Assembly: GCA_051294905.1 (NCBI GenBank)
Contig: CM119372.1
Span: 14,448,001 to 14,512,000 of the forward strand
Direction: 5' to 3'
Source: Botryllus schlosseri
Lineage: Eukaryota
Length of the DNA stretch: 64,000 bases
In this document: in pieces, positions 32,882 through 33,376 of the stretch
Layout: each line of letters begins with the position of its first letter
How positions within the stretch are numbered: the stretch's first letter is position 1
Notes under the pieces: generated by a model
What the model was told of the DNA's origin: nothing
The model's database searches: none
The model's input: only the letters and a program-made list of their open reading frames with translations
Program-made: the position numbers and the translations under genes

Positions 32882-33376
32882 ATGGAATTATTGCGAGTAT
32901 CACCTGCGCTCACTGAAGAAAAGGATGAAATTATATCCACGGCATATTCCTTAGCTAGAAATTTTATCATGTATGAAATCGACGGCTCAAGCGTTAAAGC
33001 AAATACACAGGTGGAGAAAACCTTACGACGAGTTGTTACTGAAATATTTGAGCGATATCGAACTATCCTAAACGCAGTCTCCAAGCGCCTTCGTTATAGT
33101 GAAGTCAATGAGAAATATAAAGAACATTCACCCATTGAGCGAATGTTCCTGATGATAGCCGATGAAATATTCAAAGATAGTCAAGAAAATTGGGGTCGGA
33201 TTGTGTCTCTTTATGTGCTTGGCGGCATTCTTGCTCGCAATAACGAGGCTGCGCATAACGGCAGGGATATAGATGCTATCATACAGACACTCGGGAATTA
33301 CATTGCTACTAAAAAACGAAAGTGGATAGAACAAAATGGTGGATGGAGGCATTTTGTCACGTGGTATCACTTATAA
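32882..33376 (+). CDS. Viral Bcl-2 family protein, 164 aa, no C-terminal TM anchor
   Basis: BH1 EIFKDSQENWGRIVSLY, BH2 WIEQNGGWRHF, BH3-like TLRRVVTEI, BH4-like SLARNFIMY. ATG at 32882. Confidence 0.9.
   Translation: MELLRVSPALTEEKDEIISTAYSLARNFIMYEIDGSSVKANTQVEKTLRRVVTEIFERYRTILNAVSKRLRYSEVNEKYKEHSPIERMFLMIADEIFKDSQENWGRIVSLYVLGGILARNNEAAHNGRDIDAIIQTLGNYIATKKRKWIEQNGGWRHFVTWYHL

Follow-up and report, generated by a model that had tools for sequence, protein, structure and literature searches.

In 2021, Starrett et al. reported that adintoviruses have Bcl2 and IAP homologues (PMC8502044; their text for Supplementary Fig. S2 carries three Bcl2 labels), and most of the adintoviruses associated with mammals seem to code for anti-apoptotic homologues, candidate oncogenes or both (PMC11071296); the word 'adintovirus' does not occur in the available text of PMC11209288. 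Mavericks are recognized by TIR ends of the form (AGT)2//(ACT)2 together with a 6-bp TSD, and accessory regions at both ends are part of their normal layout (PMC8097293). Nearly all inhibitory vBcl-2 proteins have anchors; vaccinia N1L is without a TM region and ASFV A179L without an obvious one, and both of these proteins inhibit apoptosis (PMC5691641). On the cellular side, pro-survival Bcl-2 genes have two coding exons, whose boundary falls at the GGW of BH2 and the second of which encodes the TM region, and the Bax, Bak and Bok genes have 4-6 exons (PMC8998228).

The locus described here lies in a window of 64,000 nt from Botryllus schlosseri (the window being the whole stretch of DNA analysed), and is an intact Maverick/Polinton of 17,175 bp (32542-49716). 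Its ends read AGTAGT...ACTACT and are bordered on both sides by a perfect 6-bp TSD (Table 1). The insertion interrupts one arm of a host repeat (32036-32541 and 49717-49851) that is palindromic and whose arms rejoin across the element, and further copies of this repeat occur near 6282-6566 and 26651-27196. Over their first 200 nt the two TIRs show 12 mismatches, of which 11 fall within positions 39-92 (window 32580-32633); this clustering fits an origin of the ends in two related elements better than it fits uniform decay since the insertion. Outside the element, the window holds a 687-aa single-ORF oxysterol-binding protein gene (21603-23666, minus strand) with PH and OSBP domains, which is intronless and possibly a retrocopy.

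Table 1. The Maverick/Polinton element and its borders, in window coordinates
Feature	Position	Strand	Remarks
Left TSD, TACGTA	32536..32541	.	within palindromic host repeat split by the element
Left TIR, start AGTAGT	32542..32780	+	92.5% identical to right TIR over 239 nt
Subterminal repeat units	32693..32859	+	3 TGACGTAA sites; directly 5' of Bcl-2 ATG
Bcl-2-family ORF	32882..33376	+	164 aa, no interruptions; BH3-like LRRVVTE, BH1 NWGR, BH2 GGW
Small ORF, no known family	33414..33713	+	99 aa (125 aa from 33336); may not be a gene
Candidate poly(A) signal, AATAAA	33428..33433	+	52 nt past Bcl-2 stop
tRNA-Ala(TGC)	33737..33809	+	
UBE2D-like ubiquitin-conjugating enzyme (E2), intronless	33878..34348	+	E 1.9e-48 and 9.5e-46
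tRNA-Pro(TGG)	34525..34596	+	
Cysteine (adenain-type) protease	35383..35835	-	ASFV S273R E 0.0026; His, Asp, Gln, Cys motifs
Likely major capsid protein	35832..37109	-	425 aa; by position and size
Retroviral-type integrase with chromodomain	39230..40237	-	rve 1.9e-13, Chromo 1.2e-9
A32-type packaging ATPase	41122..41853	-	Pox_A32 8.5e-10
Putative family B DNA polymerase	41747..45676	-	open frame of 1309 aa; motifs of exonuclease and of polymerase
Internal copy of right subterminal module (49323-49550)	46636..46960	-	immediately 5' of ORF 46147-46635; 7 mismatches/110 nt; 5 TGACGTAA sites
tRNA-Leu(TAA)	47443..47526	+	
Stand-alone death-domain ORF	49011..49298	-	95 aa; Pfam Death E 3e-11, above cut-off
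Right TIR, end ACTACT	49481..49716	-	
Right TSD, TACGTA	49717..49722	.	

The neighbouring core ORFs of the element are open. The candidate capsid protein gives a DJR-like match at E 0.14 and a single-sequence model of pLDDT 35, and the putative polymerase was assigned from motif patterns of family B, its 1309-aa ORF giving no profile match. At the position of minor capsid genes stand two adjacent ORFs of 249 and 273 aa (window 37506-39073, minus strand) that look alike by eye and have no profile match. The right accessory region includes a 183-aa ORF (47894-48445, plus strand) that belongs to no Pfam family and has an Asn/Gly-rich C-terminus; the 2.7-kb right segment containing it, tRNA-Leu and the death-domain ORF may be a later terminal addition. 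Eleven of the 13 TGACGTAA sites in the window fall in three terminal-type modules (left, right and one internal); 2.1 sites would be expected, and 13 sites were reached in 0 of 100 shuffles, with the qualification that the sites are repeat copies and hence not independent. We take TGACGTAA to be an ATF/CRE-like site, and infer that the modules rich in it act as promoters.

The Bcl-2-family ORF lies just behind the left module, with its ATG about 22 nt past the subterminal repeats. No plus-strand ORF of at least 40 aa precedes it within the element, and a 60-aa minus-strand ORF overlaps its start. The ATG at 32882 has the context AAAACCATGG, which is better than that of the alternative in-frame ATG at 32858, a poor one within the subterminal repeat that would add 8 aa; a relative with 79% identity (P0002) has the same start Met. 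The product matches the Pfam Bcl-2 family (PF00452) with E 9.5e-21 and 74.7 bits, against a curated cut-off of 31.4. BH1 (NWGR) occupies residues 103-106, BH2 runs from W148 to GGW155, the BH3 region (LRRVVTE) occupies residues 48-54, and an exon-2-type helix 8 is present. The stop follows 9 residues beyond GGW, and there is no TM segment in the ORF, whose maximum 19-residue hydropathy is 0.69; a C-terminal anchor is frequent in PF00452 but not obligatory. In all these respects the original prediction, a Bcl-2 homologue placed as first gene inside the left TIR, with intact NWGR and BH2 and ending just after BH2 without a TM anchor, was correct. The ORF is a real gene; its family membership, fold, motif set and place in the element are confirmed, as is its lack of a tail.

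Nothing in the 2 kb behind the stop resembles the TM tail of the closest named relative, a Styela protein (best E about 1), and a frameshifted remnant of the ancestral tail was rejected on this ground. A hydrophobic 17-mer that starts right after the stop in another frame is unrelated to the Styela tail.

An AlphaFold2 model made with a 150-row Bcl-2 alignment as input (pLDDT 91.6, pTM 0.85) has eight helices, agrees with the Bcl-2 fold that was predicted, and presents a groove that appears compatible with pro-survival function. When the model was compared with 48,161 solved chains using VIA-align, the best match was NRZ (Z 20.3, rmsd 2.5, 146 aligned), with trBcl-2L2 (Trichoplax Bcl-2L2) at 19.4, Bcl-xL at 19.1, MCL1 and BOK both at 18.8, Bfl-1 at 18.5, ASFV A179L at 17.0, Bax at 16.0, Bak at 14.5 and BFK at 10.8; the poxvirus proteins A52, A46, N1L and B14 scored 7.6-9.0. 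Foldseek TM values for the model were 0.67-0.77. The best PDB sequence matches are Mcl-1, BCL2L10, Bcl-2 and A1, and groove-lining positions remain hydrophobic in the alignment.

Pro-survival and pro-death proteins are not separable by fold alone. Could the product, in the manner of BFK, Mcl-1S or BALF1, be pro-death or an antagonist, putting the host's pro-survival Bcl-2 out of action and thereby, for instance, helping release? Human BFK is TM-less and ends just after BH2, much as this ORF does, the Pfam BALF1 profile matches weakly, below its cut-off (E 1.7e-4), and BOK equals MCL1 in fold score. Killer BH3 ligands, however, use the BH3 Gly-Asp, which is gone here; moreover, the product lacks a membrane anchor with which to form pores, and its relatives appear to show the two-exon pro-survival layout. 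We consider a pro-death role highly improbable.

The relatives of the ORF point to where it came from. Among the 150 matches listed, of 503, the best is P0001, the Styela clava bcl-2-like protein 2 (XP_039252627; 49% identity, E 4.4e-37), which carries a TM tail and suggests that the host is a tunicate; two further proteins, P0258 and P0259, are closer, at 68-72% identity. In a tree from a quick search (70 rows cut at BH2, SH-aLRT support only, E1B not included), the ORF is sister to P0258/P0259 (SH-aLRT 99) and groups with them in a clade that includes P0001 (94 and 99); this clade is only weakly linked to vertebrate Mcl-1/A1/NR13 (85). The ORF thus nests with a cellular tunicate protein, in line with the prediction of a captured host-type gene. 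Two of the matches, P0002 and P0155, correspond to the N-terminal and the C-terminal half of one close relative, each from a 4016-bp contig, and possibly belong to one broken gene.

The prediction had also called the gene intronless, and here the residues behind GGW are informative. Of 262 fetched proteins, 237 have the BH2 motif, and V directly follows GGW in 164 of them, which is what a gene caller reading on into a GT donor would yield. In the DNA of this ORF, the TGG that ends GGW is followed by AGG, and its tail (RHFVTWYHL) fits the spliced pattern, which is found in 42 of 71 non-V tails versus 2 of 129 V tails (the pattern was chosen after the tails had been seen, and the tails counted have at least seven residues). 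Nine of the ten nearest relatives that reach GGW have BH1 and BH2 in one frame or fragment and then V; the intron of all nine is read from protein sequence, and some of them are near-duplicates. The exception is P0001, a spliced RefSeq model. The tail test supports the claim, and the ORF appears to read across the BH2 intron site. The simplest reading would be a precise loss of the BH2 intron, probably via mRNA, followed by loss of the tail, and the ORF looks like a processed, tail-less capture of a tunicate-type gene.

Searches of viral and metagenome contigs with the Bcl-2 protein or an alignment confirmed no relative, and scans of the viral contigs with the element's capsid, ATPase, polymerase and terminal 38-mer found no relative; a first word-based protein search yielded 0 of 31 candidates. 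The left 2.9 kb of the element occurs, whole or in part, in 20 of 24 listed sequencing runs, and at least half of its words occur in 7 listed runs (3 studies, 2 organism labels), the best of which may come from the source sample, but this segment spans the TIR, tRNAs and E2, and the matches need not reflect the Bcl-2 gene. None of the runs listed is an RNA run containing the left 2.9 kb.

The BH3 region deserves separate consideration, since the prediction had singled out the replacement of its Gly-Asp. The canonical core LxxxGD, which is common in PF00452 and not required there, is absent, the ORF reading LRRVVT. All nine of the nearest relatives that cover the site carry GDE, so VT is derived in the element's gene, and to this extent the replacement stands. 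It is a poor mark of viral origin, however: in 149 aligned relatives (the 150 matches listed of 503, minus P0072, a long repeat protein), the Gly position is V in 98, and the pair is GD in only 12 and VT in 7. With V the family majority at the Gly position, a change from GD to VT is evidently tolerated in cellular proteins, and we reject it as a viral hallmark.

These changes raise the question of whether the gene is still under selection. A truncated passenger would have lost its tail at capture, would have drifted from GD to VT and elsewhere under relaxed selection, and would offer no protection. Consistent with drift, the end branch of the ORF in the tree is 0.31 versus 0.13 for its sisters, the two adjacent BH3 changes are radical ones at a site fixed in nine of nine nearest relatives, and a close relative (P0002, P0155) is called in two pieces. 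Protein-level tests found no significant avoidance of conserved columns, with changes on the Bcl-2 branch in 5/32 of these versus 23/94 of the rest (Fisher p 0.34; rank test p 0.12), and under neutrality the chance that the frame stays open through 28 missense changes is 0.14. A clustering of derived changes in BH3/helix 3, at p 0.011 for a chosen window, loses its significance when corrected for the scan (p 0.24). Against the passenger reading, NWGR, W148 and GGW are preserved, no stop interrupts the frame after its conserved start, the rest of the element is intact, and V at the BH3 Gly position is what most of the family has. Most of the changes are also conservative, with a mean BLOSUM of +0.53 to +0.64 versus -0.18 expected, a bias that is borderline for the 15 likely-derived changes (P 0.057; 0.012 for all 22). 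On this evidence a mere passenger seems unlikely.

We favour, as the probable function, a soluble pro-survival protein that acts as a sink, binding pro-death BH3 helices through the NWGR groove of the modelled fold. A gene captured from the host lineage would have lost its BH2 intron exactly, most simply via an mRNA copy, and then its TM exon sequence. Transcription would start from the TGACGTAA-rich subterminal repeats. The product would bind the helices of Bax/Bok or BH3-only proteins in the groove of helices 2-5 via N103-W104-G105-R106, and would do so free of a membrane anchor, as in vaccinia N1L or ASFV A179L; with its BH3 Gly-Asp lost, it would no longer serve as a BH3 ligand. The host cell would thereby be kept alive during replication or integration of the element. 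A motif scan of 263 fetched proteins found no Bax/Bak-type partner.

The Bcl-2 gene is not the only accessory gene with a possible bearing on cell death. The death-domain ORF resembles TNFR1, RIPK1 and FADD. It reads inward and is the first gene behind the right TIR that can be recognised, a mirror image of the Bcl-2 gene's placement on the left. About 55 nt upstream of it is a TATATAA. One relative was found (P0263, 95%), which differs in its last residues. The UBE2D-like E2 has HPN and the catalytic Cys, and a tRNA gene on each side. A stand-alone death-domain gene mirroring Bcl-2 at the right end, and an E2 beside Bcl-2, are new here; a narrow search with incomplete literature coverage found no published link between polintoviruses and the death domain.

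With such companions, the Bcl-2 fold might instead have been repurposed as a cytosolic modulator of innate immunity or autophagy, in the manner of poxvirus N1/A52/B14 or of Beclin-1 binders, and would then work with the death-domain protein and the E2. The missing TM tail and the nature of the two other genes agree with this idea, as does the fact that N1L, itself TM-less, modulates NF-kB too (PMC5691641); in addition, tunicates have no obvious Apaf-1, and their mitochondrial apoptosis may be modified (PMC8998228). Nevertheless, cellular pro-survival proteins, at Z 18-20, are far nearer to the model than A52, A46, N1L or B14 are, and the BH3-binding NWGR is kept, and we regard an immune modulator as quite unlikely.

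If the Bcl-2 product is the soluble pro-survival protein that we favour, the three genes could form a two-ended anti-death kit: Bcl-2 would act on the mitochondrial route from the left end and a death-domain decoy on the receptor or immune route from the right, both encoded by the gene next to a terminal promoter module rich in TGACGTAA, and the E2 would stand alongside. The Bcl-2 gene would then be a capture caught in the act, having lost its intron, its membrane tail and its BH3 Gly-Asp within about 30% divergence of intron-bearing relatives. We offer this larger reading tentatively and with some doubt; if true, it shows stepwise how a host Bcl-2 becomes viral. If active, the Bcl-2 gene, taken with the death-domain and E2 genes, suggests that host cell death is a main barrier to Mavericks.

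Does the Bcl-2 gene indicate that the element is infectious? The prediction argued so, preferring a true infection cycle to a purely transposon lifestyle, and this argument proved weak. A survival benefit holds equally for an infectious cycle and for intracellular replication with integration, and an anti-apoptotic gene does not tell the two apart. Planarian Burro LTR retrotransposons also carry BCL2-like motifs, together with BIR motifs and an env-like region (PMC6431247), so that Burro is itself not a clean non-viral control. Bcl-2 cargo by itself does not prove an infectious cycle, and it leaves the question of infectious Maverick virions undecided; the open virion module is better, if indirect, evidence on infection.

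How, then, does the gene compare with those of the known systems? Adenovirus E1B-19K offers an analogy, as a Bcl-2-type accessory gene near the terminus of a linear, protein-primed DNA genome. The predicted 'E1B-like' terminal position goes no further than that analogy, since identity is 11-12%, the fold match has an E of 0.36 or worse, and accessory regions at two ends are normal in Mavericks; the first adenovirus gene, moreover, is E1A and not E1B. The Adeno_E1B_19K Pfam family gives no match to the ORF at E 0.01. Common descent was rejected, given the low identity, the lack of a Pfam match and the nesting of the ORF with a cellular tunicate protein. N1L and A179L share with the ORF a compact eight-helix fold without an obvious anchor, but they are unrelated in origin (13-21% identity), and their activity has been shown, whereas that of the element's protein is predicted.

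The closest relatives (Styela P0001, with P0152-P0154, P0258 and P0259) are 47-72% identical to the ORF and have clade-specific features and a tree clade in common with it. All of them keep LRRVGDE, where the ORF has VT, and the ORF also lacks an intron and a tail; the N-terminus of P0001 is longer and its C-terminus is a TM tail, and the others look intron-bearing at GGW. If active, the gene also offers a small, soluble product, with close cellular relatives, on which to ask how host Bcl-2 is remodelled into viral cargo.

The adintoviruses are the nearest parallel, in that a Bcl-2-family accessory gene is carried by an animal element encoding an integrase and PolB (PMC8502044). The lancelet adintovirus Bcl2 (UniProt A0A5H3CWZ2, Branchiostoma) has 9% identity to the ORF, with a structural alignment E of 0.15. 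Considering this value and the 11-12% for E1B-19K, the gene described here is likely an independent capture. If it is active, it shows that animal Mavericks have repeatedly and independently acquired host survival genes. The available text of PMC8502044 does not analyse introns, TM segments or the state of BH3, and it mentions no cargo consisting of a death domain only or of an E2. Bcl-2 cargo as such was already known for elements of this kind, and what the present locus adds is a capture that can be traced and a death-domain gene that mirrors it.
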